In this document: positions 34,196-60,848 of the stretch, piece after piece | Layout of the letters: every line of letters starts with the position of its first letter | Numbering within the stretch: position 1 is the stretch's first letter | NCBI GenBank assembly: GCA_038883335.1 | Contig: JAVZMI010000001.1 | Coordinates: forward strand, 51,696-115,695 | Direction of reading: 5' to 3' | Length of the DNA: 64,000 nt | From: Candidatus Bathyarchaeia archaeon | GTDB taxonomy: Archaea > Thermoproteota > Bathyarchaeia > Hecatellales > Hecatellaceae | Notes under the pieces: generated by a model | What the model was told of the DNA's origin: nothing | Seen by the model: the letters and a program-made list of their open reading frames with translations, nothing else | Database searches by the model: none | Position numbers and translations under genes: made by a program

Positions 34196-34212
34196 CCGGT
34201 CATTAGAGAGGG

Positions 34213-36273: not shown

Positions 36274-36826
36274 CCTCCTGCAAAGGCCAAACTGCTGACT
36301 GCCACTTCTCTACCTCTCCACGAAGTCTCTCATAGAGGGCTCTCTCTTCAGGGGTTAGATTCTGGAATATTGTATCAGATTTACTGTTTAGAGAGGTAAA
36401 GAGAAGGATCTTATTGAGGCGACAGGTGAGAATGTCAATGGACAGCTGGACTGCTTTCTGTAACTCAGCCGCTTTTGCAGGGTTCGCGTAACTTTCTTCC
36501 CTGAGAACTTTAATGAACCTCTTTAAACGTGGGTAGAAATTTTCTGGGAGACCGGAGAGGCGTCGACTGGTTTGCATTGTCTCTTTTAAGTGAATCTTGT
36601 GGAGCTCTGCTAGGTTTATGGGTTCTCTTTCGGGCTGCAACCGTGCCAGACCTAACTTTATGAGCGCCTCAGCTACCCACATCCTAACCTTGAACTGTGT
36701 GTTCTCCACATAAGGGCCGATCTCCTCTCCGGCTACAGTAAGTTTTGGGATTTTCTTCGAAGCTATTAACGCTGCAGGACTGTGTTCATACCGTATATTA
36801 TACACGGTGAAGGGATGCGAAGACAT
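36266..36826 (-). CDS. Putative GINS subunit (Gins23-like), co-operonic with mcm
   Basis: 186 aa. Its stop overlaps the mcm start by 8 nt, as in crenarchaeal gins23-mcm operons. Sequence similarity to GINS was not verified. Confidence 0.35.
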   Translation of the reverse strand: MSSHPFTVYNIRYEHSPAALIASKKIPKLTVAGEEIGPYVENTQFKVRMWVAEALIKLGLARLQPEREPINLAELHKIHLKETMQTSRRLSGLPENFYPRLKRFIKVLREESYANPAKAAELQKAVQLSIDILTCRLNKILLFTSLNSKSDTIFQNLTPEERALYERLRGEVEKWQSAVWPLQEDE

Positions 36827-37319: not shown

Positions 37320-37844
37320 TTATAGCTCGCCTCTTAGTAGGCGACTAAACCATAGCCTACAGTAACGGCGGAACTTGGAGAGGGTGGGGAAGACTTTTCT
37401 GGAGAAAAACTTCCAGCGCCATTCAATTAGAGCGCACGTGGTAGATGTTATCTCGAGTGCGAAGTATTGAAGCGTTGATAGGATGGATATTACACGTTCG
37501 ACGCCAGCGATATAACATGACGCCCCCACTAAGACAAGTAAAGCTAAAAAGAGGTCAAACGGAGCAATAGGTAGTCTTCTGTGTTGTTTAGCACTCGTTT
37601 CAGGCCGAACTGGGCTTGTATCCAAACGTTCTAGGCGATCTAAATCCTCCAAATACTTTATCCAGGCGGTGTAGCGGATGTTGTGACCTGGGCGAATCAT
37701 TATCCACTGCCTATTGTAGTCGCCTATAGCTGGATCGTAACCTTCAGGCGGCTTTCCGTATTTTTTAGCCAGCATCCTGAGTTTGTATTTTCTAATCTCT
37801 TCGGGGGAGAAATCGGACAAATTTTTTCTCAACTGAAATTTCAA
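37320..37844 (-). CDS. Hypothetical membrane protein
   Basis: 174 aa with a basic N-terminus and 2 predicted TM helices. Confidence 0.3.
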   Translation of the reverse strand: MKFQLRKNLSDFSPEEIRKYKLRMLAKKYGKPPEGYDPAIGDYNRQWIMIRPGHNIRYTAWIKYLEDLDRLERLDTSPVRPETSAKQHRRLPIAPFDLFLALLVLVGASCYIAGVERVISILSTLQYFALEITSTTCALIEWRWKFFSRKVFPTLSKFRRYCRLWFSRLLRGEL

Positions 37845-39491: not shown

Positions 39492-40316
39492 TTAGACTAT
39501 AACCTCAATCGGCTGTTGACTCACCACACCACACCCACCAGTGTAATCTACTGCAGTTTCCATTACAGGCTTGTGAGGCTGGGATAAATTCATAGCTATA
39601 CAGTCTGTCTTCTCCACTATCAACTCAATAGCCCTTCTCCAAAGTGGAGATTCAGCCAAGCATGGGAGGTAAACCTCCAGAGTATACTTGGCTCCCTTCG
39701 CGGTCAGCTTGAAATACCTAGAACTTGACCTCTCCTCTACTATAAAGCTCTCAAAGACTAGATCGGAGATAATCTCACACAACCTATCATAATTAAGCCA
39801 AGTTCCTGGATGAGAACTAGCAACCAAACCTTCTGGAGACCGAATGGCCCTTTCAGCCTCCAAATATTTGAGACAGTTATAGATCCAAGCTGCGGATGGC
39901 TTCGACAAACATGTTGGAATTTTAGACGCTCTCTCCCGTCTTAGTATCAGGTAAAGAATGAGCCCCCTTAAGGCCTCTTGTATACCTGCAGGCTGGTTCA
40001 CTAAAGATTTTAAGCGCTGAACTTCTTCGCTGAGAGAATAATGACTCCCCCAGGTTCCGAAGGCCTTATCCCCATAATCCTTGATCCTAGATAGCCCTAA
40101 ACCCGGCTCACTAACTGATCCGTCATCACACAGCTCAGCCACTTGCACATAATCAAGCGACGGTCTGCCGTCAAGGCGGCTCTGTGCCATCGTTAAGGAC
40201 GCTCTCTCTGCAAGGAAGTGGAGCCCTACAAGATAGCTTGAGTAATTTAATGAGTAATTTATCATACGCAACAGACTTGACTGTCTACTTACGACTGGTT
40301 CAACGATGAACCACAC
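39492..40316 (-). CDS. Hypothetical protein
   Basis: 274 aa with no recognised motif. It sits in the same operon as the Lrp-like and PadR regulators. Confidence 0.3.
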   Translation of the reverse strand: MWFIVEPVVSRQSSLLRMINYSLNYSSYLVGLHFLAERASLTMAQSRLDGRPSLDYVQVAELCDDGSVSEPGLGLSRIKDYGDKAFGTWGSHYSLSEEVQRLKSLVNQPAGIQEALRGLILYLILRRERASKIPTCLSKPSAAWIYNCLKYLEAERAIRSPEGLVASSHPGTWLNYDRLCEIISDLVFESFIVEERSSSRYFKLTAKGAKYTLEVYLPCLAESPLWRRAIELIVEKTDCIAMNLSQPHKPVMETAVDYTGGCGVVSQQPIEVIV

Positions 40317-40843: not shown

Positions 40844-41158
40844 GTGGCAAGGTTGTCCGAAGAGAACCTTTGGAGTCAACTTAGACTCCTATCTCAAAAG
40901 GATGTAAGAAGAGTTTTATGCGAACTTTGCTTAGCCCCTGGTAGGAAAATGTCGCTTAAAGACCTAGCCTCTAGAACAGGGATCCCTTACACAACCGTAT
41001 ACCAGAAGATACAAGCAATGAGATCCGCAAGCCTGATTGATATGAAAGGAACGAAAAGAGAAGGCTTCACTGTCTATTTGAGAGACTTCGAACTACCGCC
41101 ACTTACCCCTGAAAGAATATGCGAGTTGGAGGGACGACCACTACCCAACATATTATGA
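40844..41158 (+). CDS. Winged-helix transcriptional regulator (ArsR/MarR-like)
   Basis: 104 aa with the HTH MSLKDLASRTGIPYTTVYQKIQAMRSASLI. Confidence 0.5.
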   Translation: MARLSEENLWSQLRLLSQKDVRRVLCELCLAPGRKMSLKDLASRTGIPYTTVYQKIQAMRSASLIDMKGTKREGFTVYLRDFELPPLTPERICELEGRPLPNIL

Positions 41159-41823
41159 GAGGGCAGATCTTGAAAGGAAACTATGTGGTCGTAGGGCTCA
41201 CCAATGAAAATGTTTGGAAAGAAGCTTTAAGATGCATTCGTAGAAATGGAGAATATATTACGGACCCTCAAAATCTAGAGAAAACCCAGGAGGTTCTAAA
41301 TCTAATCACCAGCATATTGAAGCCCTCTAACACGCTGCCTAGAGCATTCTCTAGAGACACGAAGATCAACGATCACCCCCACCTATTAGAAGGTCTAGTC
41401 AGACCTATCCCCGGCTTTAGCCCAGGAACACATCTCTGGGAATGGGCACTCCCTAGAGGACGACTGAATCAGATCGAAGATAACGTGACGAAAGTTCTCA
41501 GAAACAATCTACTCAGCCGCCGTGCAGTGGCATTAACTTTCCATCCAGGGATGGACTCTGAGCACATCCTCAACCCCCGCTATAGCTTCCCAGCTATACA
41601 GATTGTTGACTTCAAGTATAGGGAAGGGAGTCTACATCTGACCGCCTACCTGAGGTCTTGTGACATATATTCTTGGTGGCCGATAAACGTCGTCCAAGCC
41701 TACAGACTCCTCAAGAAAGTAGGAGAGAAACTTGACTTAAGTATAGGAACGCTCACATTGATGATCAGTAGCGCCCATGTCAAAGCAAGAAACCTAAAAA
41801 GGATTGAAACAATACTAGTTTAA
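41155..41823 (+). CDS. Thymidylate synthase (ThyA-fold) homolog lacking the catalytic cysteine
   Basis: 222 aa. It aligns by eye to E. coli ThyA. RRAVALTFHPG matches RRIIVSAWN, AYLRSCDIYSWWPINVVQAYRLL matches [22 protein letters not shown], and GTLTLMISSAHV matches GDFVWTGGDTHLY. The nucleophile motif P-C-H is replaced by P-R-Y. The start was taken at the internal ATG 41155; the ORF begins at 41119. Confidence 0.6.
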   Translation: MRGQILKGNYVVVGLTNENVWKEALRCIRRNGEYITDPQNLEKTQEVLNLITSILKPSNTLPRAFSRDTKINDHPHLLEGLVRPIPGFSPGTHLWEWALPRGRLNQIEDNVTKVLRNNLLSRRAVALTFHPGMDSEHILNPRYSFPAIQIVDFKYREGSLHLTAYLRSCDIYSWWPINVVQAYRLLKKVGEKLDLSIGTLTLMISSAHVKARNLKRIETILV

Positions 41824-42107: not shown

Positions 42108-42818
42108 CTACTTCACTGGGTGATACCGAACCTCGAAACCTACCTCTTTTTTGGGTGGAAAGAAATAGTCACGCATTTTGATCAGGATGTTAACCATTTC
42201 TTTCGCCCAAGGCAACAGTTTAACCTCTTCACCAGTCTCTTCCAACCTTCGGAGACAGTTAACGAACCGCTCAGCCTCTTCTCTTCCTACATCAGAACTA
42301 TGGGGGGAAGGAGACGTGGAAACCTTCCATTCGACCCAAAACAGTAGAGGCACATAGTCGGAAACTTCGAGCTCTTCAAAGTTCACCTTTAACAGGATGC
42401 CGTAGAAGACCTCGGGGAATGTTTTTCTCAAAAACTTGAACAGTGCGTCTACTGCAGTTTTTAACGGCTCATGGCTTACTGGGAAATTCTCCATCAGAGT
42501 ATAGTTGACGTTATGTTTCTCTTCGACCTGTGCCACCTTGGAGATGGGTAGGAGCCCCCACCTTAGAAGGTTAACCACACCATGTTGAGTTAAACCGTAA
42601 AGTTCACGTCTACGACCCCAAGAGCCCTTCTCTCTCACTGGAAGAGCGAAGCCTTTTTTCTCTATGAACCGAGCCCATTTTGACATGAAAATGTGCATAT
42701 AGCCCCTACCAACTATGTCTGCCAGCTCACTCCAACAGAGAGGACCTCTCTCAATAAGCCTCAAAAAGGCTTCTTTTGCTTTTTTATGTCTTAAAAGAGG
42801 AGATTGACCAACCAACAT
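42108..42818 (-). CDS. Hypothetical protein with a possible N-terminal wHTH
   Basis: 236 aa. The N-terminus LRLIERGPLCWSELADIVG is HTH-like. The rest was not recognised. Confidence 0.3.
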   Translation of the reverse strand: MLVGQSPLLRHKKAKEAFLRLIERGPLCWSELADIVGRGYMHIFMSKWARFIEKKGFALPVREKGSWGRRRELYGLTQHGVVNLLRWGLLPISKVAQVEEKHNVNYTLMENFPVSHEPLKTAVDALFKFLRKTFPEVFYGILLKVNFEELEVSDYVPLLFWVEWKVSTSPSPHSSDVGREEAERFVNCLRRLEETGEEVKLLPWAKEMVNILIKMRDYFFPPKKEVGFEVRYHPVK

Positions 42819-43348: not shown

Positions 43349-45709
43349 TTGTTGCCCACGTCTCCTCAACGCTCTGAGAGAAACCCCCCCATCAACCAAA
43401 AAGGTGAAACGGAGATGAGCGAAGCGGCTAACCAAACTTGTAAAACATGCGGAGCGATCATGGAGCGGGGGAAGTGCCCCAAATGCACACCTTTTGAAGA
43501 GTTTATTAACCTTCCACTGGCGTCATGTGTGAATTGCGGTCACTATTTAGGCTTAGAGTGCCCCAGAGCTTCAATACACCAAGAGAATAGGCGAACCCGC
43601 ACCTTCACTGCAGACGACTATAAAATCTGTGAAAAGTGGACGTTAGCCATCAGAACTGCGGATGGCACAGTTTATAGACCTCTGGTGAACAAGGGAATCT
43701 CCGCTCATCCAGCCTCTCTCTTCCATAGCGGAGAAAACGGCATCATAGTTGGTGAGCTGACCTTCGCCCGTTCAGAAGTGGAAAAAACAAAGAAGGAAGA
43801 CCCAATAAAGACTAGAGAGATAACCGTTTATCTTTTTTGGTGCCACCACCACAACCACGAGCTCCAACTTTACTTTAAATCGCTCAGTGCAGTGGACGCC
43901 ATTCCCTATGGTGATAAAGAGATCTACCTCGAGAAGGATAACCTTGTGAAAGACCCAATTCAGACGTTGATACCGTTAGAGACTGTGGAGCGGGTTGCGG
44001 CTAGCCCTGAAGAGGCAAACAAAGAAGCGGAGTTCCCCGCAATTTTCAGACAGGTAAAGACAGAGCTCAGACGTTTTCTCAACCTAGAGTGGGATCCACG
44101 GCTTTACGATTTATTGGCATGTTACATTATCGCAACATACTTCTTCGACGCATTCCAAACGTTCCCATGGCTTTATTTCTATGGCTTTCAGGGATGCGGA
44201 AAAACAAGAGGAGCCCTAACGGTCACATATATGGCTAGACACGGTCACATGGTCACAAAACCGAGTGACGCTTCCATCTTCCGACTATGCCACGCCATCA
44301 AGCCCACCTTATGTGTGGACGAGGGACTGTTAGGACGGTCAGCTTGGAGTTTCGCCCGATCCACATTCAAGAAAGGCGTCAAGGTTCCACGAGTCGAGAA
44401 GACCCCACGAGAAGAGTTCGTTATTTCGCTCTTCGACTTGTACATGCCACTAGTCTTCGCTTCAACTAAGAAGCCCACTGAAGCGGGGGGGTTGAATGCG
44501 GATGAGGCACGTGCAATATTCATCCACATGGAACGAGCTCGAGACCCTATAGGTCGGGATCCCACGCCAGAAGACTTTGCCGCTCTAAGAGATCGGCTCT
44601 ACATGTTGCGGCTCTTCAAGGCTAAATGTGTCGTCGAGACGTCTAAGAACATTAATGTTCCGTTTCTGGGACATGAACGAGAAATATGGACGCCCATCTT
44701 CACGATTGCCAACTTAGTTGGGAAGGACGTTCTCTCTTCTCTCTATAAACTAGCAAACGACCTGTACGCTTCAAAGTTTGTAGAGTTAAATGTGAAAGAG
44801 AAGACAATACTTGACGCCATAGCCCTCCTATTCAAAGAAACGAACGAAAAAATTGTGTGTTTCACACCTTCTTCTCTTCAAGCGTACATCAAAACTGTGC
44901 TTATAGAAAGCGGAGAGTACGACGAACTCCACTTTCCAAAGATATGGAACGTGTATCTCATAGGCAGGCTCCTTTCAAGGATGAAACTCACACCCAAACG
45001 GGACACGGCTCGAAAATACTATATCACCCAGCCTCAGTTCGCCAAGCTTGAAAAACAATTTGGTATAGAGCTCGACGTTTTCGACGTTTTCGACGTTAAT
45101 GTGGAAGAACCATCTACCCCCACTTCAGACCCCAATACCCTATCCCTAAAATTAACGTCGAATTCGTCGAATTCGTCGAACGATAAAAAAGAAAGCTTAG
45201 ACAACGCCTCTTTAAACGAAAAAACCTTAGAAAAAGGCGAATTTAGAGATAGTGTTAAAAATAAAGCTTCTCAACCTGAAATAGAAGCTAAAAAAGACGA
45301 ACAGACCGCTCTAGAGAGTGAAAGTTTCGACGTTTTCGACGTTTTCGACGTTAATGTGGAAGAACCCCCTACCCCCACTTCAGACCCCAATACCCTATCC
45401 CTAAAATTAACGTCGAATTCGTCGAATTCGTCGAACGACGAGAGGGGGAACGGCTCTCATGGTGGCTTTAATGATGTTTCTTGCGGCACTTCTAACAGTG
45501 GTTCTGTTGGCGTTTCTAGTGAGGTTTCTAGTTGCACTGTAGAGAAGCACCACTGTCTCACAACGGAGGGTAGTGAACCTCAACCGATGGTCAGTGGAGT
45601 ACCAGGTCTCCCACCAAGGTTCAAATGTGAGATCTGTGGACGGAAGTTCCGTTTCCCCTACGATGTGCTCTCACATAAGCAAACCGACCACGGTTTAAAG
45701 GTGGTCTAA
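43349..45709 (+). CDS. Element-encoded Zn-finger/P-loop NTPase (putative replication helicase or initiator) with a C-terminal tandem-repeat region and a C2H2 zinc finger
   Basis: 786 aa. The N-terminal Zn-ribbons are CKTCG...CPKC and CVNCGH...C. Walker A is GFQGCGKT and Walker B is LCVDEG. It is followed by two copies of FDVFDVFDVNVEEP(S/P)TPTSDPNTLSLKLTSNSSNSSND and a terminal C2H2 finger FKCEICGRKFRFPYDVLSHKQTDH. Confidence 0.55.
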   Translation: MLPTSPQRSERNPPINQKGETEMSEAANQTCKTCGAIMERGKCPKCTPFEEFINLPLASCVNCGHYLGLECPRASIHQENRRTRTFTADDYKICEKWTLAIRTADGTVYRPLVNKGISAHPASLFHSGENGIIVGELTFARSEVEKTKKEDPIKTREITVYLFWCHHHNHELQLYFKSLSAVDAIPYGDKEIYLEKDNLVKDPIQTLIPLETVERVAASPEEANKEAEFPAIFRQVKTELRRFLNLEWDPRLYDLLACYIIATYFFDAFQTFPWLYFYGFQGCGKTRGALTVTYMARHGHMVTKPSDASIFRLCHAIKPTLCVDEGLLGRSAWSFARSTFKKGVKVPRVEKTPREEFVISLFDLYMPLVFASTKKPTEAGGLNADEARAIFIHMERARDPIGRDPTPEDFAALRDRLYMLRLFKAKCVVETSKNINVPFLGHEREIWTPIFTIANLVGKDVLSSLYKLANDLYASKFVELNVKEKTILDAIALLFKETNEKIVCFTPSSLQAYIKTVLIESGEYDELHFPKIWNVYLIGRLLSRMKLTPKRDTARKYYITQPQFAKLEKQFGIELDVFDVFDVNVEEPSTPTSDPNTLSLKLTSNSSNSSNDKKESLDNASLNEKTLEKGEFRDSVKNKASQPEIEAKKDEQTALESESFDVFDVFDVNVEEPPTPTSDPNTLSLKLTSNSSNSSNDERGNGSHGGFNDVSCGTSNSGSVGVSSEVSSCTVEKHHCLTTEGSEPQPMVSGVPGLPPRFKCEICGRKFRFPYDVLSHKQTDHGLKVV
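45072..45438. repeat. Two 112-nt near-identical direct repeats (45072-45183 and 45327-45438, period 255 nt) inside the 786-aa ORF, with embedded micro-repeats (tcgacgtttt x2.5; tcgaattcg x2)
   Basis: The copies were aligned directly. They differ only in ccatct versus ccccct. They encode the duplicated low-complexity protein segment. Confidence 0.8.
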
Positions 45710-47385: not shown

Positions 47386-48633
47386 TTAAGTTAGAAGCTT
47401 CCTTATCTCCGCAACCTCTTCCAACGCCCTGTTAATCCTTCCAGTGAGCTCCGTGTTCTCCAACTCCAACCTTGCCATCCTGCTCTTAAGCTCCAAGTTT
47501 TCTGCAGAGAGGTTCTCTATCACCTTCTGGAGGCTTTGGATGCGTTCATCCACCTTGGCGTCAACCTTCCTCTCAATCTCCGACGGGTCGACTGGAGGGG
47601 GGGTTATGCTCAGTAAGCGTTCCCGTTCGAGATACATCTTCCTGAGGCTCTCAAACTGGAGCCCTTTATACGCTTCCGCCATCTCTCCGATTGCATGCCC
47701 TAACCAGAAGTCAACTATGGTGTCTGGTACGCCTGAGTTAATCATTATGCTACCGAAGCTTTCACGCAAGGCATGGGGACTTAACGGGTTGATGTCTCTA
47801 CCGTTATTATAGGGGTCTATGAAGCCCGCCTTTAATGCCACCTCTCTCAACATGTTCTGGACTAGGTGTGGTTGAAGTGGAGCCCCATGTGGTCGTTCCC
47901 TTTGGAATAGTGGCGAACCGTCTTGAAGCTTCACACCTCTGGCTTCAAGGTCTCGGAGGTAGACTTTGACTGCTTCTATTGCGTCACGCCCAAGGAATGT
48001 GAAATATTCCACTCCAGTTTTCGGTCGGTAGAGGTCTAGCTTGAGGGGGATCTCTCCAGACTCGAGACCTCTCCGTATGTCTCCATATTTGAGACTGCAC
48101 AGTGTCGAGACATCCATCCCGCTTTGAAACATGGTGAGAATGACGGCTTTGTCACGGGGGTTCCTTGCATGATCCACCAACAACTTGACCTGACTAGAGC
48201 TCAACCTCATCCTTCGGTTGGTTACCTTCGGTTTGGGAAGCCTGTAGCGGCCCTTAAGGCGCACTTCAACGTCGAAAGTCGAGTAGAAGCTTCTTATGGC
48301 GGTTATGTAGAGGTTTGCGGCTTTATCGCTCAAACCCTTCTTGACTTCTGTATGTTCGCATCTTCCACGCCTTTTTATGGGGTAATCCTTTTTCAAATAT
48401 TGGTAGAACCCGACTATCCTGTTGAGGACTATGCCACGCCTTTGGCGTATGTCTCTGGTTTGGTCTTCTACGGCTTCGTCGATGAGTTGGCTTGCGGTTA
48501 GACCTGTGAAGGCTAGGTATGCTCTGATGGCGGTTTTGTAGCTTGCTTTGGTAGACGGTTTAGTTACGGGGTCAAGCCACCTTGATATGGCGGGGTCTTC
48601 TAAGTTTATCAGCTCAATTTGTGGAGACGACAT
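47386..48633 (-). CDS. int: Tyrosine recombinase/integrase (phage-integrase family), full length
   Basis: 415 aa with an N-terminal SAM-like domain. The C-terminal catalytic domain has R...HALRESFGS (H-x-x-R)...GHAIGEMAEAYKG with a terminal Tyr region. The gene is not split, which points to a pNOB8-type integrase. Confidence 0.8.
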   Translation of the reverse strand: MSSPQIELINLEDPAISRWLDPVTKPSTKASYKTAIRAYLAFTGLTASQLIDEAVEDQTRDIRQRRGIVLNRIVGFYQYLKKDYPIKRRGRCEHTEVKKGLSDKAANLYITAIRSFYSTFDVEVRLKGRYRLPKPKVTNRRMRLSSSQVKLLVDHARNPRDKAVILTMFQSGMDVSTLCSLKYGDIRRGLESGEIPLKLDLYRPKTGVEYFTFLGRDAIEAVKVYLRDLEARGVKLQDGSPLFQRERPHGAPLQPHLVQNMLREVALKAGFIDPYNNGRDINPLSPHALRESFGSIMINSGVPDTIVDFWLGHAIGEMAEAYKGLQFESLRKMYLERERLLSITPPPVDPSEIERKVDAKVDERIQSLQKVIENLSAENLELKSRMARLELENTELTGRINRALEEVAEIRKLLT

Positions 48634-49982: not shown

Positions 49983-50125
49983 GCCCCGGTCAAGCCTCGG
50001 TTCCCTCGGTGAAGGGTGAGAGAGCGCAGCATGGTTGGCGCGTGGCCTTGGTAAAATATTAAAGCAAATTGATTGCACCTACAAAAAGGCTAAGGTCGCG
50101 GGTTCAAATCCCGCCCGGGGCTCCA
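49983..50125 (+). tRNA. tRNA-Thr(GGU) with two introns: a non-canonical one near positions 8/9 (about 32 nt, 49991-50022) and a canonical 37/38 intron (33 nt, 50054-50086)
   Basis: The deduced mature tRNA is GCCCCGG-UA-GCGC-AGCAUGGUUG-GCGC-G-UGGCC-UUGGUAA-GGCUA-AGGUC-GCGGG-UUCAAAU-CCCGC-CCGGGGC-U-CCA. The acceptor has 7 bp, and the D, anticodon (U33, GGU, A37) and T arms are canonical. The discriminator is U and the CCA is encoded. Confidence 0.75.
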
Positions 50126-53058: not shown

Positions 53059-54336
53059 TTGAGGGATGTTAGGGGAAAGGGATTCGCCAAACCGCTCAGA
53101 GTTAACGAAGCTTGGGATGTGTTCATGAGAGAGGCTAATCTAAAGCCTCTATCTCCCGAGGTGGTAGCACTCAGGGAGAGCTTGGGGAGGACTCTGGCTG
53201 ATGATATACAAGCCGAGCTGGATATACCTCCTTTTGATCGGGCTGCTGTAGACGGGTATGCTGTTAGAGCCGAAGACACCTACGGAGCTTCTGCTGCAAG
53301 CCCTATAGTCCTAAACGTAGTAGGGGTTGAAGAGGTAGGAGGTGAAACGTCATTGCATGTTGGGGAAGGGGAGGCTGCTCGGATTTCTACAGGCGCTCCT
53401 ATGCCGGTTGGGGCAGACTCTGTGGTTATGTACGAGTACACTAGTAGCATAGATGGGAGCAGAGTGGCGATCCAGAAGGCTACAGCCCCAGGCGATAATG
53501 TCTCGAAGAGAGGAGAGGATGTAAGGAAGGGGGAGACAGTCCTAAAGAGGGGGACGCTTTTGAAGCCATACGACCTCGGCATGCTGGCAGCTGCCGGAGT
53601 GACGAAAGTGAGCGTCATTAGGCGACCTAAGGTAGCAGTATTCTCGACTGGTAGTGAGTTAGTCGAGCCCGGCTGCAAACTGGGAGGTGGCAGAATCTTC
53701 GACGTTAACCGGTACACCCTTCAAGCATTAGTCAGGGAGATGGGGGGAGACCCCCTCGACTTTGGGATAGTACATGACAGCTTCAAACATGTAACGGCTA
53801 CTATAGAGCGGGCGTTGGAGAAGGCAGATTTGGTTCTCGGTAGCGGGGGGACTTCCGCAGGTTCGAAGGACATACTGCCTAATGCCGTGAATTCGCTGGG
53901 GGAGCCTGGAATCATAGTTCACGGTGTATCTATAAAGCCTGGGAGACCAGTTGCATTGGCGGTCATCCGAGGTAAGCCAGTTGTCCTGCTTCCAGGTCTC
54001 CCCGTGGCGGCAGTGGTAGCTTTCTTAGTCTTTGTAAGGCGAATTTTAGCTGTAATGTTGGGGTCGCCGAGCTTAGGGTTGGGGGGTGGAACTGTTCAGG
54101 CCAGGATGATTAGGAGTGTAGCTTCAACTCCAGGTGTAAGAAGTTACGTGAGAGTAGATTTGGAGAAGAAGAGGAACGGCTATGTTGCCATCCCTATCAT
54201 GGCTGGAGGCTCTGGAGTTATTTCGTCAATGACCAGGGCAAAGGGGATGGTGGTCATACCCGAGAATGTTGAGGGGCTGGCTGAGGGGGAGGAGGTAGAG
54301 GTAATCTTGTTGAGGCCCCTAGGTGAACCACTGTGA
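53059..54336 (+). CDS. moeA: Molybdopterin molybdenumtransferase MoeA
   Basis: 425 aa. The motifs are PPFDRAAVDGYAV, ISTGAPMP, the MoCF-biosynthesis domain GGTSAGSKD and PGLPVAAVVAF. Confidence 0.8.
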   Translation: MRDVRGKGFAKPLRVNEAWDVFMREANLKPLSPEVVALRESLGRTLADDIQAELDIPPFDRAAVDGYAVRAEDTYGASAASPIVLNVVGVEEVGGETSLHVGEGEAARISTGAPMPVGADSVVMYEYTSSIDGSRVAIQKATAPGDNVSKRGEDVRKGETVLKRGTLLKPYDLGMLAAAGVTKVSVIRRPKVAVFSTGSELVEPGCKLGGGRIFDVNRYTLQALVREMGGDPLDFGIVHDSFKHVTATIERALEKADLVLGSGGTSAGSKDILPNAVNSLGEPGIIVHGVSIKPGRPVALAVIRGKPVVLLPGLPVAAVVAFLVFVRRILAVMLGSPSLGLGGGTVQARMIRSVASTPGVRSYVRVDLEKKRNGYVAIPIMAGGSGVISSMTRAKGMVVIPENVEGLAEGEEVEVILLRPLGEPL

Positions 54337-54554
54337 GCCGCAAGGTCTTCAGGAAACTCGCCTCAATCGAGGAGGCGTTAGAGACACTTGAAAGACACTT
54401 CAACCCACACCCGATAGGGAGCGAGAACACCTCCCTCGAGAGGGCTGCCGGGAGAGTTCTAGCTGAGCACATCGCGGCACCGATAAATATACCTCCTTTT
54501 GATCGGGCTGCTGTAGACGGGTATGCTGTTAGAGCCGAAGACACCTACGGAGCT
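53222..54554. repeat. 68-nt identical direct repeat shared by the two tandem moeA paralogs (53222-53289 and 54487-54554)
   Basis: This is an exact DNA match. It encodes DIPPFDRAAVDGYAVRAEDTYGA in both genes. The flanking sequence is diverged. Confidence 0.85.
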
Positions 54555-56324
54555 GATGAGGGACGACCTAGAACTTTAAAGGTAGTTGGCAAGGTAGCCG
54601 CTGGGGATGAGCCCAAATTTGAGTTGGCTAGCGGGGAGGCTGTTGAGATCTCCACCGGCGCCCCTATCCCGATTGGGGCAAACGCAGTAGTGATGTTCGA
54701 ACACACATGGCGAGAGAATGCTCACGTGAACATAAGTAAAGTGTCTACTCCCGGTGAGAACATAATCGCTGCAGGCTCCGACATCCCAGTGGGGGAGAGG
54801 ATACTTAGAAGGGGAACCCTGCTGACATATAGAGAGACCGCCATCTTGGCGGCACTCGGAATAACTCATGTACCATGCTTCATTAAGCCAAAGGTTGCAG
54901 TCCTCTCCACAGGAGACGAACTCAAAAAGCCTGGGGAAAAATTAGATTACGGGCAAATATATGACGTGAACTCTAGGATGATCTGTGACGCCGTAACAAG
55001 CTGCGGCTGCGAACCTATCTTTATGGGTTTAGCTAAGGATGACTTTGCTGAGTTAACGCAGAAGGTATCTTCATCCCTCAAGCTTTGCGATGTAGTAGTA
55101 GTTTCTGGAGGCACCTCAGCTGGGTCAGAGGATCTGCTCTACAGGGTGACTGAAAACTTGGGTTCGCTAGGCGTGCTAGTTCACGGAATTGCTGTTAAGC
55201 CAGGAAAACCCACAATGATCGGCGTGGTGGCTGGGAAACCAGTCTTCGGTCTTCCTGGGTATCCAACATCAGCCATGATAACCTTCAAAATATTAGTCCA
55301 ACCCACACTGAGGCGGATGGCTGGGTTGAAGGTTGAGGTGGAGTCCAAGACGGTTGATGCGAGAATTGGGGAAAAGATCTATTCAGTGGCTGGGTGCAGG
55401 GAGTACGTGCCGGTAAGCCTCACACTAGCTGAAACTGGGGGGTATGTTGCATATCCAGTCCTAGGCGGGTCTGGCATTATAACATCTATCTCGAAGGCGG
55501 ATGGCATTGTAGAAGTTCCTGAAAGTGTAGTGATCCTCGAGCGTGGGGAGACAGTTAGAGTACAACTGTTCAGCTCCGAACTAAGACCTGCCAACTTGGT
55601 GATCGCCGGAAGCTACTGTGTGGGTGTGGATCTTATCTTGGATCTGATGCTTGAGAGTATGCCTGAGCTAAACCCGAGGGTGATTAATGTAGGTTTTTCT
55701 GGGGGTTTAGTGGCGTTAAGTAGAGGTGAGGCTGACATTGCAGGCGTTAATATTTTTAATCCTGACGCTGAAGAGTACAACCTACACTGTCTCAAGCGTT
55801 ACGGGCTAGCTGGGAAAATCATGCTCGTACGAGGTTATTTTCGAACTCAAGGGTTGCTACTCCGCAAGGGGAATCCAAAAAGTGTAAAGAGCTTAGAAGA
55901 CCTCCTAGATGGGAAGGTTTCCATGATCAACCGTGAACCCGGCTCTGGAGCGCGGTTAATTCTTGATCACCTCCTTCAGAGGCTAGCTAACAGTAAGAGG
56001 TTGGATCTTAAAGAGGTAACATCCAAGATAATAGGCTACAGCATTGTGGCTAAGTCTGATATCGCTGTAGCTATGGCGGTTATGCGTGGTACGGCTGATG
56101 TAGGGCTTGCAACCGAAACCACCGCCAACCTGTACGGGCTGGACTTCATACCTCTAGCCAAAGAGAGCTACGACTTTGCAATACTAAAGGGACGGCTGAC
56201 AAAACCAGCCGTGAAGCTATTCGTAGATACTTTAGGGTCGGAGTGGTTTAAGAGTGAACTGCCCCAGAAGTACCCGGGCCTCACCCCTACCGAGGAAACT
56301 GGCAAGATGATCCTTACAGCATAG
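54333..56324 (+). CDS. MoeA paralog fused to a C-terminal periplasmic-binding-protein-like (molybdate/tungstate-binding) domain
   Basis: 663 aa. The N-terminal 400 aa are MoeA-like (PPFDRAAVDGYAV, GGTSAGSED, GLPGYPTSAMITF). The C-terminal 240 aa form a PBP-like domain (NVGFSGGLVALSRGEADIAG...). Confidence 0.75.
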   Translation: MSRKVFRKLASIEEALETLERHFNPHPIGSENTSLERAAGRVLAEHIAAPINIPPFDRAAVDGYAVRAEDTYGADEGRPRTLKVVGKVAAGDEPKFELASGEAVEISTGAPIPIGANAVVMFEHTWRENAHVNISKVSTPGENIIAAGSDIPVGERILRRGTLLTYRETAILAALGITHVPCFIKPKVAVLSTGDELKKPGEKLDYGQIYDVNSRMICDAVTSCGCEPIFMGLAKDDFAELTQKVSSSLKLCDVVVVSGGTSAGSEDLLYRVTENLGSLGVLVHGIAVKPGKPTMIGVVAGKPVFGLPGYPTSAMITFKILVQPTLRRMAGLKVEVESKTVDARIGEKIYSVAGCREYVPVSLTLAETGGYVAYPVLGGSGIITSISKADGIVEVPESVVILERGETVRVQLFSSELRPANLVIAGSYCVGVDLILDLMLESMPELNPRVINVGFSGGLVALSRGEADIAGVNIFNPDAEEYNLHCLKRYGLAGKIMLVRGYFRTQGLLLRKGNPKSVKSLEDLLDGKVSMINREPGSGARLILDHLLQRLANSKRLDLKEVTSKIIGYSIVAKSDIAVAMAVMRGTADVGLATETTANLYGLDFIPLAKESYDFAILKGRLTKPAVKLFVDTLGSEWFKSELPQKYPGLTPTEETGKMILTA

Positions 56325-56453: not shown

Positions 56454-57365
56454 ATGAAAACTCTAGGCAGTTGCATTAGGCCAGTTAAGGAGCCTTTCTC
56501 AGGGTATCAAACCCAGTTTAACGAGGCTTCTTACGTAATATTTGGAGTGCCATACGATAAGACCAGCACATATCGTCTAGGTTCAAGGCTAGGACCTAAG
56601 GCCGTGAGAAGAGCTTCCCTCAACATTGAAACTTACAGCCCAAGAACTGACTTGTACGTCGAAGATTTGAAGATGTGTGATTTAGGAAATGTTAAGGTAG
56701 CAGGTAGCTTAGACTGTGTCACAGAGGTAACCTCTAAGATCTTGGATGCTGGCAAGATGCCGGTTATCCTCGGCGGCGAGCACACACTCACATATTACGC
56801 CCTAAATGCGCTACCTAGAGATACAGCGTTAGTCTCCTTCGATGCTCATTACGACCTCAGGGATGAGTACAACGGTAGGAAAATCTCACACGCCACGGTA
56901 ATGCGCCGAATAGTCGACAAATGCGGACCTGAGCGGATAATCTTTGCAGGCACAAGAGCTACCAGCAAAGAGGAGTTGAGCTTCGTTGAGAAGAATAAAA
57001 TTCACAACATAACAGCTCACAAAATACTCCATGACGGCTGGCGTGAGGCGGCTGACTCGATTAAAGATTCTCTTCAAAAATTTTCCCGATATTATCTGAC
57101 TCTTGATATGGATGTACTGGACCCAGCACATGCTCCAGAGGTTGGAAATCCTGAGCCTGAAGGGTTAGAAGTCACATCGCTCCTAAACATAATTCATGGT
57201 TTCTGCGATGAGAGGCTTGTGGGGTTCGACCTAGTCGAGGTTGCACCAAAGGGTGACTTCGGAATAACCGCAATCCAAGCGGCTAAGATTATCTTCGAGA
57301 TACTCTGCTTCATAGAAGCTGTGACACGTAGAGCGTACGAAGATTTTCTTGCAAGCTTCCGCTAA
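56454..57365 (+). CDS. speB: Agmatinase/arginase-family ureohydrolase
   Basis: 303 aa with the Mn-binding motifs GGEHTLT, SFDAHYDLRDEY and LTLDMDVLDPAHAPEVGNPEPEG. Confidence 0.8.
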   Translation: MKTLGSCIRPVKEPFSGYQTQFNEASYVIFGVPYDKTSTYRLGSRLGPKAVRRASLNIETYSPRTDLYVEDLKMCDLGNVKVAGSLDCVTEVTSKILDAGKMPVILGGEHTLTYYALNALPRDTALVSFDAHYDLRDEYNGRKISHATVMRRIVDKCGPERIIFAGTRATSKEELSFVEKNKIHNITAHKILHDGWREAADSIKDSLQKFSRYYLTLDMDVLDPAHAPEVGNPEPEGLEVTSLLNIIHGFCDERLVGFDLVEVAPKGDFGITAIQAAKIIFEILCFIEAVTRRAYEDFLASFR

Positions 57366-57441: not shown

Positions 57442-58782
57442 TTAGCCTTCCCTTCTAATCTTAGCTATGAAGCTGCCGTCCGAGTCGTGTAGATGAGGAT
57501 AAATCCTTACACAGTTGTGGAGCTCTCTAAAGGCCGGCCTTCCCACACCTCTCACCTCCACTAATCTAAAGTCGGGCTTCAAACTTAGGAAATGCTCCAA
57601 AACCATCTCATTCTCCTCCACCGTAATGCTGGATGTAATATAAATCACGACGCCACCGACCTTGACGTGTCTAGAAAATTCCTCCAAGGCACCAACTTGC
57701 TGAGCCATATTTTTCTTGATATCTTCAGGTTTAACGCTCCATCTAATAGACGGCTCAGTCCCGAAGATGCCGGTTAAGCTTGAAGGAGGGTTGACAACTA
57801 TAATATCGGCATCGATAGGGGCGGGTGAAGCTGTTTGAGTTTTAAGGCTGAGGGGTTTGGCTATTTTCACGCCAAGTCTCTTAATATCTCGCTCCAATGC
57901 TTTTGTCTTCTCAGGACGGGGCTCTGCATAGAGGATGACCCCACTGTTTTCCATCAGTTGAGCTAGGTGAGCAATCTTTGCTGCGCCGTCTGCAAACATG
58001 CCTAAGACTCTCATGCCTTTCTCTACGCCTGAAGCTGAGACAGCTAAATAGCTGCCTTTATCTTCGAGATAGAGGAGACCTTTCCTGTAAGCTTCAGTTC
58101 TCCATAGCAACCTACTCCCACCCGAAACAAGATGCAGGTGTAACATTTCAGGCATATGGCTGAGATTGATCCTCTCTCTGGTGAGCGCGGCGGTTATGGT
58201 TTCCTCGGACCCATGAAGTGTGTTTAGGTGGACGTAACTGGACACACCTTCAGCGGATTTCCGTAGTAGCCTCAATGCCTCTCGCCTTCCAAGGAGGCGG
58301 TAGCAGTACTTGACGAACCAGTCTGGATGAGAAGTCTCCAAGGCTGTCCTCTCAACATCGGCCAGACCTTCATAGATAGTAGCTGGCTCAAAAGTTAGAA
58401 GCCTGCCGAGAAACGCCTCCACCGGGTGTAGGGTTTTCCACCCCAAAATTTCCCTAGAAGCCTCAACTAGCTCTACACAACATTTACACGTCTGAGGCGA
58501 GAGTTTAGTTAAATAAGTGTAAATTCTAAGGAAACTTCTTACACCAGCTGTTACTTTGTGTAGAAGTTCAGAAGGGACGACAGTAGCCAGAATCCTCCCT
58601 ATTACAGCCTCTCTCCTAAGTGTCTCTTGGACGAGAGCATTGGCTGAAGCGATAACTGCCTCATCCCTAATGCCTAGCTGCTTTGCCGCTCTCATGGTGG
58701 CATAAGAAAGTCCAATGCCGCTCAACTCGATCCAGCTTAAAGCCTCGATAGCCGTAGCCAAGGCATTAGGTTCTATAGTCAA
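57442..58782 (-). CDS. NOL1/NOP2/Sun-fold RNA methyltransferase-like protein in which both catalytic cysteines are replaced by serine
   Basis: 446 aa with an N-terminal NusB-like region. The SAM-binding region reads VLGMFADGAAKIAHLAQLM. The motif IV equivalent is DIIVVNPPSSLTG, against the consensus DAPCSGTG. The motif VI equivalent is VIYITSSITVEENE, against the consensus YSTCSxxxEENE. The serine codons were verified on the DNA (tca agc). Confidence 0.7.
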   Translation of the reverse strand: MTIEPNALATAIEALSWIELSGIGLSYATMRAAKQLGIRDEAVIASANALVQETLRREAVIGRILATVVPSELLHKVTAGVRSFLRIYTYLTKLSPQTCKCCVELVEASREILGWKTLHPVEAFLGRLLTFEPATIYEGLADVERTALETSHPDWFVKYCYRLLGRREALRLLRKSAEGVSSYVHLNTLHGSEETITAALTRERINLSHMPEMLHLHLVSGGSRLLWRTEAYRKGLLYLEDKGSYLAVSASGVEKGMRVLGMFADGAAKIAHLAQLMENSGVILYAEPRPEKTKALERDIKRLGVKIAKPLSLKTQTASPAPIDADIIVVNPPSSLTGIFGTEPSIRWSVKPEDIKKNMAQQVGALEEFSRHVKVGGVVIYITSSITVEENEMVLEHFLSLKPDFRLVEVRGVGRPAFRELHNCVRIYPHLHDSDGSFIAKIRREG

Positions 58783-58916
58783 CTAGGTAACCCCAAAACT
58801 ATAGAACCCAAAATATCAACATTAATCTTACCGCAAACCTAAGGTGCACATTTAATTAGTGTGCATATCTTCTAAAAAATGTCCTCTCTTTAAAAAAAGA
58901 AAAAGGTAGGTGCTAC

Positions 58917-60848
58917 CTATCCTTCGGTTACTTTATTCTTTGCTTCTTCCACGGAGGTTTCATCCTCGAGGGTAGTTATATCTCCTATGCTCTCTCCCTT
59001 CTCGAGAGCGCGAAGCACCCTACGCATTATCTTACCACTTCTAGTCTTCGGCAGTTTTTCAACGAAGTATATCTCGTCGGGTACGGCTATCGGGCCTATC
59101 ATAGTCTTTATCTGATCCTTGAGCTCCTTTCTAAGATCTGCCGTCGGCTCTACGCCTTTTTTAAGTATAACGAAAGCAACAGGCACTTCGTCCTTAATTT
59201 CATGAGGTCGCCCTATGACCGCAGCTTCACTAACCGCCTTATGTGCAACCAATGCGCTTTCAAGTTCAGCTGTTCCCAGTCTGTGTCCCGCGACCTTTAG
59301 GACGTCGTCGACCCTGCCTAGCAACCACAAGTATCCGTCGTCATCTTTCATCGCTCCATCTCCGGTAAGGTAGACGCATCTGTCTTTAAACGCGCTCCAA
59401 TACCGCCTAATATACCCATCCGGATCCCTCCAGAGAGTCCGCAACATCGCGGGCCATGGTCTGGTTAAAATTAGCTTTCCACGCGTGTTAGGCGGCAGAG
59501 GTCTACCTTCGTCGTCTACGACTTCAGCTTTCACACTTGGGAATGGAAATGTCGCTGAGCCTGGCTTCAACTTTGTAACTCCAGGCAAAGGTGTTATAAG
59601 GATCATGCCTGTTTCAGTCTGCCACCAAGTGTCAACAATCGGGCAGTTGTCCTTACCGATATTTCTGTTATACCATCTCCATGCCTCAGGATTTATAGGC
59701 TCCCCAACCGTTCCGAGTAGCCTCAAAGTGCTCAAATCATGCTTTTTAACCCATTCTTCACCAAATCGCATAAATAGTCGAATCGCCGTGGGGGATGTAT
59801 AGAAGATGCTAACACCGTAATGCTCAATTATACTCCACCACCGATCCGGGTGCGGGTAGTCGGGTGCTCCTTCGTACATCAACACAGTTGCGCCGTTTGA
59901 GAACGGGCCGTAAACGACATAACTATGACCTGTGACCCAACCTATATCGGCTGTACACCAAAATATGTCCTCATCTTTAAGGTCGAATACCCATTTAGTT
60001 GTGATGTGAGTGCCAACATTGTAGCCGCCGTGGACATGCATGACACCCTTCGGCTTGCCTGTTGTGCCCGAGGTATAAAGGATATAAAGTGGATGCTCGC
60101 TGTCAACTACCTCCGCATCACATTTCGGCTCCACACCATCTTGGAAATCATCCCACCAGATGTCCCGATCATCCATAATGTTAACATCATGCCCTGTTCT
60201 TCGCATCACGATGACATTTTGAACGCTTGGTGCAAGTTCAATCGCCTCATCAACAATTCGCTTGGTCTCAACGATCCTACCTCTTCTATAGAAACCATCC
60301 ATTGTGATGACTAACTTGGCTTGAGCGTCATTTATTCTCTCCCGCAGTGCCGCGGCGGAGAACCCGCCGAAAACTACACTGTGAATTGCACCGATTCGGG
60401 CGCAGGCAAGCATTGCGACAGGTAGTTCTGGAACCATTCCCATGTAAATTGTAACTCTGTCACCTTTCGTTATTCCAAGCTGTTTTAGAGCGTTGGCGAA
60501 CCGTAGTACCCTCCTGTAAAGTTCATAGTAGGTTATGATTCTTCTATCGCCGTCAGGCTCGCCCTGCCATATTAACGCGACCTTGTTCTTCCTCCACGTA
60601 GCTATATGCCTGTCGAGGCAGTTGTAGGATATGTTCAGTTTGCCGCCGACGAACCATTTGTAGAAAGGCGCGTTGGTGTCATCTAGTACTTTCTCGTATG
60701 GCGTAAACCAGTTGACTTCTTTTTTGGCAATCTCATCCCAAAAAGAGATGTAGTCCTTCTCAGCCTTCTCGTATACGACACAGTTGTTTATCCACGCGTG
60801 AGCTTTGAAATGTTGCCTCGGCTCATAGATTTCTCCCACTCTGAGCAT
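58917..60848 (-). CDS. acs: Acetyl-CoA synthetase (AMP-forming)
   Basis: 643 aa with the AMP-binding motif [17 protein letters not shown]-like and C-terminal lysine regions, and a typical Acs N-terminus. Confidence 0.9.

Follow-up and report, generated by a model that had tools for sequence, protein, structure and literature searches.

A probable naturally catalysis-dead ortholog of an archaeal RsmB-type m5C methyltransferase in Bathyarchaeia, proposed to be kept for a non-catalytic RNA-binding role

What does a gene of an RNA methyltransferase family encode once both catalytic cysteines are gone, and why would such a gene be kept? The question is raised by a locus in a 64,000-nucleotide stretch of a Candidatus Bathyarchaeia archaeon (assembly GCA_038883335.1, contig JAVZMI010000001.1, positions 51,696 to 115,695), referred to here as the window and numbered from its first letter. 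The gene, an RsmB-like coding sequence devoid of the catalytic cysteines, occupies 57442..58782 on the minus strand and is complete, with 446 amino acids plus the stop codon and a TTG start codon at 58780-58782. Its product is identical to NCBI entry MEM3736571.1, from a 207-kb contig of a Candidatus Bathyarchaeia metagenome-assembled genome, and that entry carries the annotation "RsmB/NOP family class I SAM-dependent RNA methyltransferase" (SAM, S-adenosylmethionine), i.e., that of an active enzyme. We propose that the query gene is probably a natural catalysis-dead ortholog of the archaeal RsmB-type 5-methylcytosine (m5C) methyltransferase, kept for a non-catalytic RNA-binding role. That role, suggested by analogy, is the least certain step, and we favor it by a little over an even chance.

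The product of the open reading frame (ORF) is, by homology and fold, a member of the RsmB/NOP2/NSUN superfamily. The Pfam profile PF01189 (Methyltr_RsmB-F) matched residues 257 to 442 with 105.9 bits (gathering threshold, 27; E = 2.8e-30). Among solved structures, P. horikoshii PH0851 (2yxl) came closest, with an alignment spanning the whole protein (2e-31); Nop2 from pre-60S structures ranked next. An AlphaFold2 (AF2) model based on 95 homologs reached a pLDDT of 88.4 and a pTM of 0.83, and Foldseek matched it over approximately 450 columns to 2yxl (TM score, 0.87) and to E. coli RsmB/Fmu 1sqf (0.83 to 0.86). As seen in the model, the superposition on 2yxl and RsmB spans a NusB-like N-terminal domain, an RRM-like subdomain, and a Rossmann core. 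The first is an all-helical, NusB-like RNA-binding domain (residues 1 to 140; 58363..58782, minus strand), delimited by AF2 secondary structure, the match to 2yxl/1sqf, and conservation, and its core residues E13, W17, E19, E53, R110, and I112-W115 are kept. It is followed by a linker and an RRM/ferredoxin-like subdomain (residues 141 to 230; 58093..58362, minus strand), recognized by a weak PF22458 match, the AF2 model, and conservation, which carries the conserved WFVKYCYRLLGR and NTL motifs. The Rossmann-fold methyltransferase core (residues 231 to 446; 57445..58092, minus strand), which harbors the PF01189 match, has kept its fold and lost its catalytic and cofactor residues. In length, three-part architecture, and full-length sequence and structure match, the protein resembles PH0851 (2YXL) and E. 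coli RsmB/Fmu (1SQF/1SQG), with which it also shares the non-catalytic motifs QDxxS, EENE, and R.YPH and the GFF-type Phe. The query scored below the cutoffs of the NCBIfam RsmB equivalog models NF011494 (167.4 versus 319 bits), TIGR00563 (109.8 versus 269 bits), and NF008149 (85.1 versus 375 bits). Canonical Bathyarchaeia orthologs, which lie approximately 100 to 120 bits above the query in these models, also remained under the RsmB cutoff (261 to 286 versus 319 bits); therefore, the whole orthogroup is RsmB-like, with no formal RsmB equivalog.

An earlier, sequence-only reading of the locus had claimed that both catalytic cysteines are replaced by serine, and the codons bear this out. The degenerate motif IV, NPPSSLTG in place of the canonical DPPCTSTG, covers residues 331 to 338 (57769..57792, minus strand; codons AAC CCT CCT TCA AGC TTA ACC GGC), and the degenerate motif VI, YITSSITVEENE in place of the canonical YSTCSITVEENE, covers residues 381 to 392 (57607..57642, minus strand; starting with codons TAT ATT ACA TCC AGC). 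The recycling cysteine of motif IV is thereby S334 (codon TCA) and the nucleophilic cysteine of motif VI is S384 (codon TCC), with the motif VI flanks T383, S385, I386, and EENE kept. Four independent HMMER pairwise alignments, one to 2yxl and three to Nop2 structures, all placed the cysteine of PC(S/T) at S334 and that of TC at S384, and MAFFT alignments of 15, 95, and 269 sequences gave the same columns. The reading had itself asked whether the cysteines might be present but offset. An offset or compensating cysteine was ruled out, as the query protein contains zero cysteines between residues 161 and 423; its five cysteines stand at positions 98, 100, 101, 160, and 424, two of which, C160 and C424, canonical enzymes conserve as well.

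According to the same reading, the remainder of the fold looked intact, and the SAM site with it. This is right for the fold, given the model confidence and the similarity to 2yxl, but not for the SAM site, which is altered at motifs I, III, and IV. In motif I, alignments show that the loop binding the SAM carboxylate reads GMFADGAAKI versus the canonical DVCAAPGAKT (57973..58002, minus strand); all members of the clade of close relatives described below carry A265D and P266G, G267 is variable, and K269 is kept in three of the four, the query among them. The motif II region, LYAEPRPEKT (57904..57933, minus strand), has Glu as the ribose-binding acidic residue (E287), which together with K292 is SAM compatible in the query; P0003 and P0004 have Ala or Val there instead of an acidic residue. 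In the motif III region, SLKTQTA (57829..57849, minus strand), the Asp that binds the adenine N6 is replaced by Lys (K314) in the alignments with 2yxl and Nop2, and the motif IV Asp, which contacts the SAM amine and the cytosine N3/N4, is N331. Compared with PH0851 and RsmB, then, the query carries replacements at each catalytic cysteine, at the Asp of motif IV and that of motif III, and in the P-G loop of motif I. Of the features of an active m5C methyltransferase it lacks those of motifs I and III and the Asp and Cys of motif IV and the Cys of motif VI, and only motif II conforms. In NSUN6, Ala changes at the acidic residues of motifs II, III, and IV each cause loss of SAM binding; D266A, K271A, D293A (equivalent to the motif III Asp position), and D323A each abolish it, and K248A and F458A are inactive (PMC5499824). 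The change of the NSUN6 motif IV Asp to Asn alone abolishes both SAM binding and activity (PMC12804707). We hold it very probable that the query protein is catalytically inactive. On the mechanism of NSUN6, Nop2, and RsmB, it would be expected to bind no SAM productively, to form no covalent C6 adduct, and to produce no m5C.

The loss of the cysteines is not confined to one genome. The query (P0001) and three relatives, P0002, P0003, and P0004, which are 55 to 59% identical and were assembled independently (NCBI, JGI, and Logan), all lack both of them. The check on the closest orthologs thus went in favor of the sequence-only reading, and strain-specific inactivation or a sequencing error was rejected because the same state recurs in the independent assemblies. 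Motif IV reads NPPSSLTG in P0001, DPPSSRTG in P0002, and NPPSSRTG in P0003 and P0004. Motif VI reads T-S-S in P0001 and P0003 (motif IV/VI state, S/S) and T-P-S in P0002 and P0004 (S/P). A further member, metagenome locus L089 (state SP), was the sole one added by the metagenome scan. Neither S334 nor S335 varies within the clade, and P0005, an intermediate, likewise has Ser at position 334. Among 1.84 billion protein representatives at 50% identity, the dead clade has one representative, with the next match dropping from 522 to 311 bits, which marks the lineage as narrow and rare. It is absent from the GTDB r232 representative genomes, where the best 80 of 379 relatives are all 36 to 41% identical to the query.

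All clade ORFs are intact, with 445 to 449 amino acids and no stop or frameshift. Within the clade, the ratio of nonsynonymous to synonymous substitution rates (dN/dS, or omega; Nei-Gojobori method, NG86) was 0.17 to 0.19 at a dS of 1.1 to 1.8; since dS is near saturation, the true dN/dS is probably lower. For the clade pairs without L089, omega in the methyltransferase core was 0.13 to 0.22, as constrained as the N-terminal domain. The catalytic loss is common to P0001-P0004 and L089 and goes together with purifying selection, as we would require of a pseudoenzyme.

To locate what was kept and what was lost, we used the 191 positions whose conservation reaches 90% or more across 88 canonical orthologs. 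Of these, all four clade members retain 96 and all four have lost 47; the other 48 are retained in some members and changed in others. The lost positions cluster in motif I (V262, C263, A265, P266, G267, and T271), motif II (D287 and Y288), motif IV (L330, C334, T335, and S336, with D331 lost in three of four), and motif VI (S382 and C384). The kept positions comprise the core of the N-terminal domain, WF.KYC, NTL, QDK.S, P332-P333, T337-G338, W348, T383/S385/I386, EENE, R426/Y428/P429/H430 (R.YPH), and F438. The last aligns with Phe458 of NSUN6, which packs against the flipped cytosine (PMC5499824). At the SAM-contact positions, P0001 to P0004 have, in that order, E, E, A, and V for D287; K, D, N, and D for D314; and N, D, N, and N for D331. 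Such variation of SAM contacts among clade members is the signature of a pocket that is no longer selected.

By position, the query gene is orthologous to that of the canonical enzyme: it fills the same slot on the chromosome and is no duplicate inserted elsewhere. It is convergent with an agmatinase gene of the arginase family (56454..57365, plus strand), which served as synteny anchor and rate calibrator, and beyond it lie a MoeA-PBP gene and a MoeA gene. The same agmatinase/MoeA arrangement was found for the clade members P0003 and P0004, for P0005, and for the canonical, Cys-bearing P0006 and P0051. Among the 82 loci with enough flanking sequence, 67 include agmatinase, and in 40 it is directly adjacent and convergent. 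It is this shared slot that identifies the query as the ortholog and not an extra paralog. The best 80 of the 379 relatives in GTDB r232 representative genomes apparently come from 80 different assemblies, which is consistent with a single-copy gene. A tblastn search with the query detected no second family member in the 64-kb window, and the related contigs likewise showed none. A weak tblastn match near 21.5 kb was considered as a second copy and rejected, since it corresponds to serine hydroxymethyltransferase. Among 20 canonical matches compared with MEM3736571.1 by NCBI accession number, most of which carry no accession, no number was close to it, which says little either way. Of the earlier suggestion of a pseudo-methyltransferase or RNA-binding paralog, the pseudo-methyltransferase or RNA-binding protein as such therefore agrees with the lost cysteines and SAM residues and with the purifying selection, and the notion of an extra paralog falls with the canonical slot.

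The surroundings of the slot differ in detail. A fusion of MoeA with a C-terminal PBP-like solute-binding domain is encoded at 54333-56324 (plus strand) in the window, at 12382-14376 in L001, at 5146-7122 in L006, and at 3051-4928 in L008. This fusion adjoins the dead-clade genes and P0005, and the two canonical loci checked (L002 and L003) have two plain MoeA genes; the fusion may be a marker of the deep lineage. Directly upstream of the query gene and co-directional with it, separated by a 134-nucleotide spacer, is an acetyl-CoA synthetase gene (58917-60848, minus strand). Elsewhere, the upstream neighbors are PolB or ThiF/PF1765-like genes (canonical loci) or HSP20/CDC48 (P0004), and synteny is thus conserved on the downstream, agmatinase side only.

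The region in front of the gene also shows conservation within the clade. All four dead-clade genes start with TTG (58780-58825 in the window and the equivalents in L001, L007, and L008). In the window, a TTAATGTTGATA box at 58814..58825 (minus strand), 32 to 43 nucleotides upstream of the TTG, is a candidate archaeal B recognition element (BRE)/TATA element, and a GGGG box at 58791..58794 (minus strand), 8 nucleotides from the start codon, resembles a Shine-Dalgarno sequence and is GAGG in the other three clade members. A TTAATGTTnATA box starting approximately 43 nucleotides upstream of the TTG and a GAGG/GGGG box approximately 8 to 9 nucleotides before the start are present in four of four members; the TTAATGTTnATA box was not seen in the two canonical loci examined. 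Judged by sequence, the conserved boxes are consistent with an archaeal promoter and a ribosome-binding site.

If the query is the ortholog itself, its relatives might record how the catalytic residues were lost. We classified homologs by the residues at the motif IV and motif VI cysteine positions, in that order, with C for cysteine and X for any other residue. Among 269 homologs, 244 were CC, 7 were C/X (CS, CN, CR, and CH), 11 were X/X, and none was X/C, with 7 partial sequences unclassified. The 80 metagenome loci divided into 73 CC, 5 C/X, and 2 X/X, and the best 80 of the 379 GTDB genome loci into 78 CC and 2 C/X (CS and CR), with no X/X. Loss of the motif IV cysteine alone was observed in none of the three sets. 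C/X loci are L005, L017, L056, L096, L105, L115, L143, and L150; both cysteines are lost in L133 and L006. In the C/X variants of other Bathyarchaeia, the nucleophile is replaced by S, N, R, Y, or H, and the motif IV cysteine and SAM site are apparently intact, so such proteins may bind SAM and RNA without turnover. All Cys-loss variants with enough flank lie in the orthologous slot, and in a neighbor-joining tree the variants fall into several groups with long branches, arranged around a canonical Bathyarchaeia clade with short ones.

Individual sequences represent different stages of this series. P0025 has lost the nucleophile alone and has an intact SAM site; P0005 has lost both cysteines and kept motif I. 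Moreover, L096 and L105 (CN) and L133 (SN) share SESG and TNSV contexts, suggesting loss in the order nucleophile, then motif IV cysteine, within one lineage. The nucleophilic cysteine is always lost first, and repeatedly so within Bathyarchaeia, and the query clade is the most decayed end of the series. Without the recycling cysteine, an enzyme stays covalently trapped on its RNA, a property that miCLIP exploits (PMC9561284), and mutating this cysteine alone is "frequently deleterious" (PMC4510066). The absence of motif-IV-only loss fits the covalent RNA trapping of such mutants.

We asked how a gene with these properties could come to be kept. The sequences show that the three-part RsmB architecture and the chromosomal slot have been retained, and that the nucleophile, the recycling cysteine, the motif III and motif IV Asp residues, and the P-G loop of motif I have been lost. 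SAM binding and the covalent C6 adduct would have been lost with them, and hence m5C formation. An intact ORF has nevertheless been maintained under purifying selection across a clade with saturated synonymous sites. The protein may still bind the ancestral RNA, which was probably rRNA or some other structured RNA, and serve without catalysis as a chaperone or assembly factor.

Eukaryotic members of the family offer precedents for such a role. In yeast, a Nop2 double-Cys mutant "caused no phenotypic effects," whereas deletion of NOP2 is lethal (PMC4510066), and human NOP2 C513A, mutated at its nucleophilic cysteine, rescues rRNA processing and proliferation (PMC9561284). These proteins belong to the same family as the query, the yeast mutant (Nop2DB) lacks both motif cysteines, and non-catalytic function is retained; the query resembles a natural version of the Nop2 double-Cys experiment. 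However, Nop2DB and NOP2 C513A are laboratory point mutants of eukaryotic nucleolar proteins with long extensions and have an intact SAM site, whereas the loss in the query is natural, ancient, archaeal, and accompanied by decay of the SAM pocket. Vertebrate NSUN7 is a natural inactive member that is blind to SAM through replacement of the motif IV Asp and has a non-catalytic role (PMC12804707). It resembles the query in being naturally inactive, in its replaced motif IV Asp, and in its non-catalytic retention; it differs in that it is a distinct paralog keeping both cysteines (LPRCS and motif VI), whereas the query is the ortholog itself, with wider decay of the SAM site. Pseudo-methyltransferases as such, NSUN7 among them, are thus no novelty. 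The apparently new element is that in archaea the ortholog itself has lost both cysteines and the SAM pocket, naturally and throughout a clade, within a recurrent, nucleophile-first series. To our knowledge, catalysis-independent roles of rRNA and tRNA methyltransferases (Nop2, Dim1, Bud23, NSUN4, METTL15, and TrmA) come almost only from engineered mutants. A literature search returned no work on Bathyarchaeota m5C enzymes or on a naturally Cys-less prokaryotic RsmB, which is not proof of novelty.

Several observations weigh against a catalysis-dead ortholog kept for RNA binding, and some of them would suit a functionless relic, a gene slowly decaying to a pseudogene after methylation of its target site became dispensable. 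The gene evolves faster than its neighbor: the query and the canonical orthologs are approximately 39% identical in this gene and approximately 51% in agmatinase, and within the clade the values are 54 to 57% versus 66 to 71%, whereas pairs of canonical genomes diverge equally in both (69% versus 67% and 64% versus 64%). In the closest pair, L001 and L089 (97% nucleotide identity), omega was 0.50 in this gene and 0.16 in agmatinase; the 14 synonymous and 23 non-synonymous differences gave a Fisher p of 0.051 against agmatinase, and the departure of the 0.50 value from neutrality had a p of 0.037. Constraint is visibly relaxed, roughly three times weaker than on the neighboring gene. The SAM-site residues are free to vary in the clade, and the lineage is rare, with its single 50%-identity representative in 1.84 billion proteins. 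The net positive charge has fallen from approximately +14 in canonical proteins to between +5 and +9 in the clade, whose proteins are still basic (pI 8.8 to 9.2), less so than the canonical orthologs. In addition, the alignment given to AF2 consists mostly of canonical sequences, so that the model's confidence is no proof of the modeled fold of the degenerate pocket. What is said here of SAM binding, RNA binding, and expression is in each case what we infer, and the term ribosome assembly factor, for a PH0851-type or Bathyarchaeia enzyme, would rest on the analogy of Nop2, NSUN4, and RsmB; in the T. kodakarensis m5C study, the counterpart gene of PH0851 and its target were not identified (PMC11344067). 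A relic is nonetheless hard to reconcile with four to five lineages that, at a saturated dS of 1.1 to 1.8, keep ORFs of 445 to 449 amino acids without a stop or frameshift, when neutrality would, on a rough estimate, predict dozens of nonsense substitutions at such divergence. The long-range dN/dS of 0.17 to 0.19, equally low in the methyltransferase core, the 96 of 191 canonical-invariant positions that are still invariant, and the conserved TATA-like and Shine-Dalgarno-like boxes also speak against it, and we regard a relic as quite unlikely.

Other functions for an inactive protein, or another activity, have to be weighed against the same data. The protein might assist or regulate, with no catalysis of its own, an active m5C paralog elsewhere in the genome, as in METTL14-METTL3, Trm6-Trm61, or DNMT3L-DNMT3A. 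It retains its RNA-binding modules, and archaea can have several NSUN-like enzymes with overlapping targets, six being predicted in T. kodakarensis (PMC11344067). The dead copy, however, stands in the ortholog's own slot and did not arise from duplication, and a second family member was found neither in the 64-kb window nor on the related contigs. We know of no RsmB-type enzyme, PH0851 included, that acts as a heterodimer, which likewise makes a partner unlikely. Alternatively, the former pocket could have been remodeled to bind another target, such as a modified RNA to be read or a different ligand. At thirteen positions a new residue has become fixed in four of four members, including the Asp-Gly of the former SAM loop and C245Y, and the cytosine-contacting F438 is kept, as is K269 in three of four. 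There is no positive sign of a new ligand, though, the residues of the former pocket are mostly variable and not newly fixed, and four sequences are too few to separate fixation from shared ancestry; we give such neofunctionalization a low probability. An enzyme of altered chemistry, with a Ser nucleophile or an N-methyltransferase-like activity through NPPS, was entertained in the sequence-only reading and is by far the least probable. S334 and S335 are invariant, motif IV is (N/D)PPS throughout the clade, and A265D and P266G are new, fixed residues of motif I. The resemblance to the (D/N/S)PP(Y/F/W) amino-methyltransferases (N6-adenine and N4-cytosine) is a superficial one, an N-P-P at motif IV on a Rossmann methyltransferase fold, as that reading had already said of (N/D)PP(Y/F); its hint at N-methylation fails, since the PP is ancestral and inherited from the DPPC of the canonical orthologs. 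The (N/D)PP(Y/F/W) enzymes require an aromatic fourth residue, here Ser334; motif I is degenerate, and the query has no sequence or fold affinity to that group and does not belong to it. A nucleophile is not conserved, either, as P0002, P0004, and L089 have Pro at the motif VI position. The residues contacting SAM in motifs II, III, and IV vary from one clade member to another, and in NSUN6 the motif IV Asp-to-Asn change alone suffices to kill SAM binding (PMC12804707).

The wider window offers further observations. A replication cluster at 31955-36826 (minus strand) encodes a Hel308-like helicase (746 amino acids), MCM (686 amino acids), and a GINS/Sld5-like protein (186 amino acids), which places the query gene in an ordinary chromosomal context, not a mobile element. 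Between approximately 36 and 46 kb, the GC content is 0.41 to 0.46 versus approximately 0.48, and four ORFs there have no Pfam match (37320-37844, 39492-40316, 42108-42818, and 43349-45709). Inside this low-GC stretch, a 234-amino-acid ORF (41119-41823, plus strand) has a weak, partial match to thymidylate synthase (PF00303; 40.8 bits; profile positions 106-221 of 266). A tyrosine recombinase/integrase gene (47386-48633, minus strand) lies 1.4 kb from a borderline Rfam tRNA match at 50045-50122 (plus strand; 30.3 bits versus a gathering threshold of 29), where ARAGORN finds none. The low-GC/integrase region may be an integrated element.

Read as a catalysis-dead ortholog kept for RNA binding, the query gene would have consequences for the family. 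Proteins that lack the cysteines are systematically misannotated, being deposited as active SAM-dependent RNA methyltransferases, and inferring m5C capacity from gene content in these Bathyarchaeia would therefore be wrong. The order of loss speaks, on evolutionary grounds, for the two-cysteine mechanism and for a toxic effect of losing the motif IV cysteine alone. As evolution's own experiment, a graded series from the nucleophile to both cysteines to the SAM pocket, with all stages in one chromosomal slot, would indicate that the archaeal RsmB-type scaffold has a value beyond methylation, and it makes natural separation-of-function variants available for probing the role of the PH0851 family in archaea. 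We further suggest, tentatively and with the odds somewhat against it, that the main selected function of the Bathyarchaeia RsmB-type protein is non-catalytic RNA binding or chaperoning, probably in ribosome assembly, with methylation a dispensable add-on. If true, this would explain the repeated, independent loss of the nucleophile (approximately 3 to 9% of the sampled loci) with the gene kept, and why loss always takes the non-toxic route, the motif VI cysteine first and the motif IV cysteine and SAM pocket later. It would also provide a ready series of natural separation-of-function alleles, and it would give the essential, methylation-independent role of eukaryotic Nop2/NSUN1 a natural counterpart, and perhaps an evolutionary forerunner, in prokaryotes.

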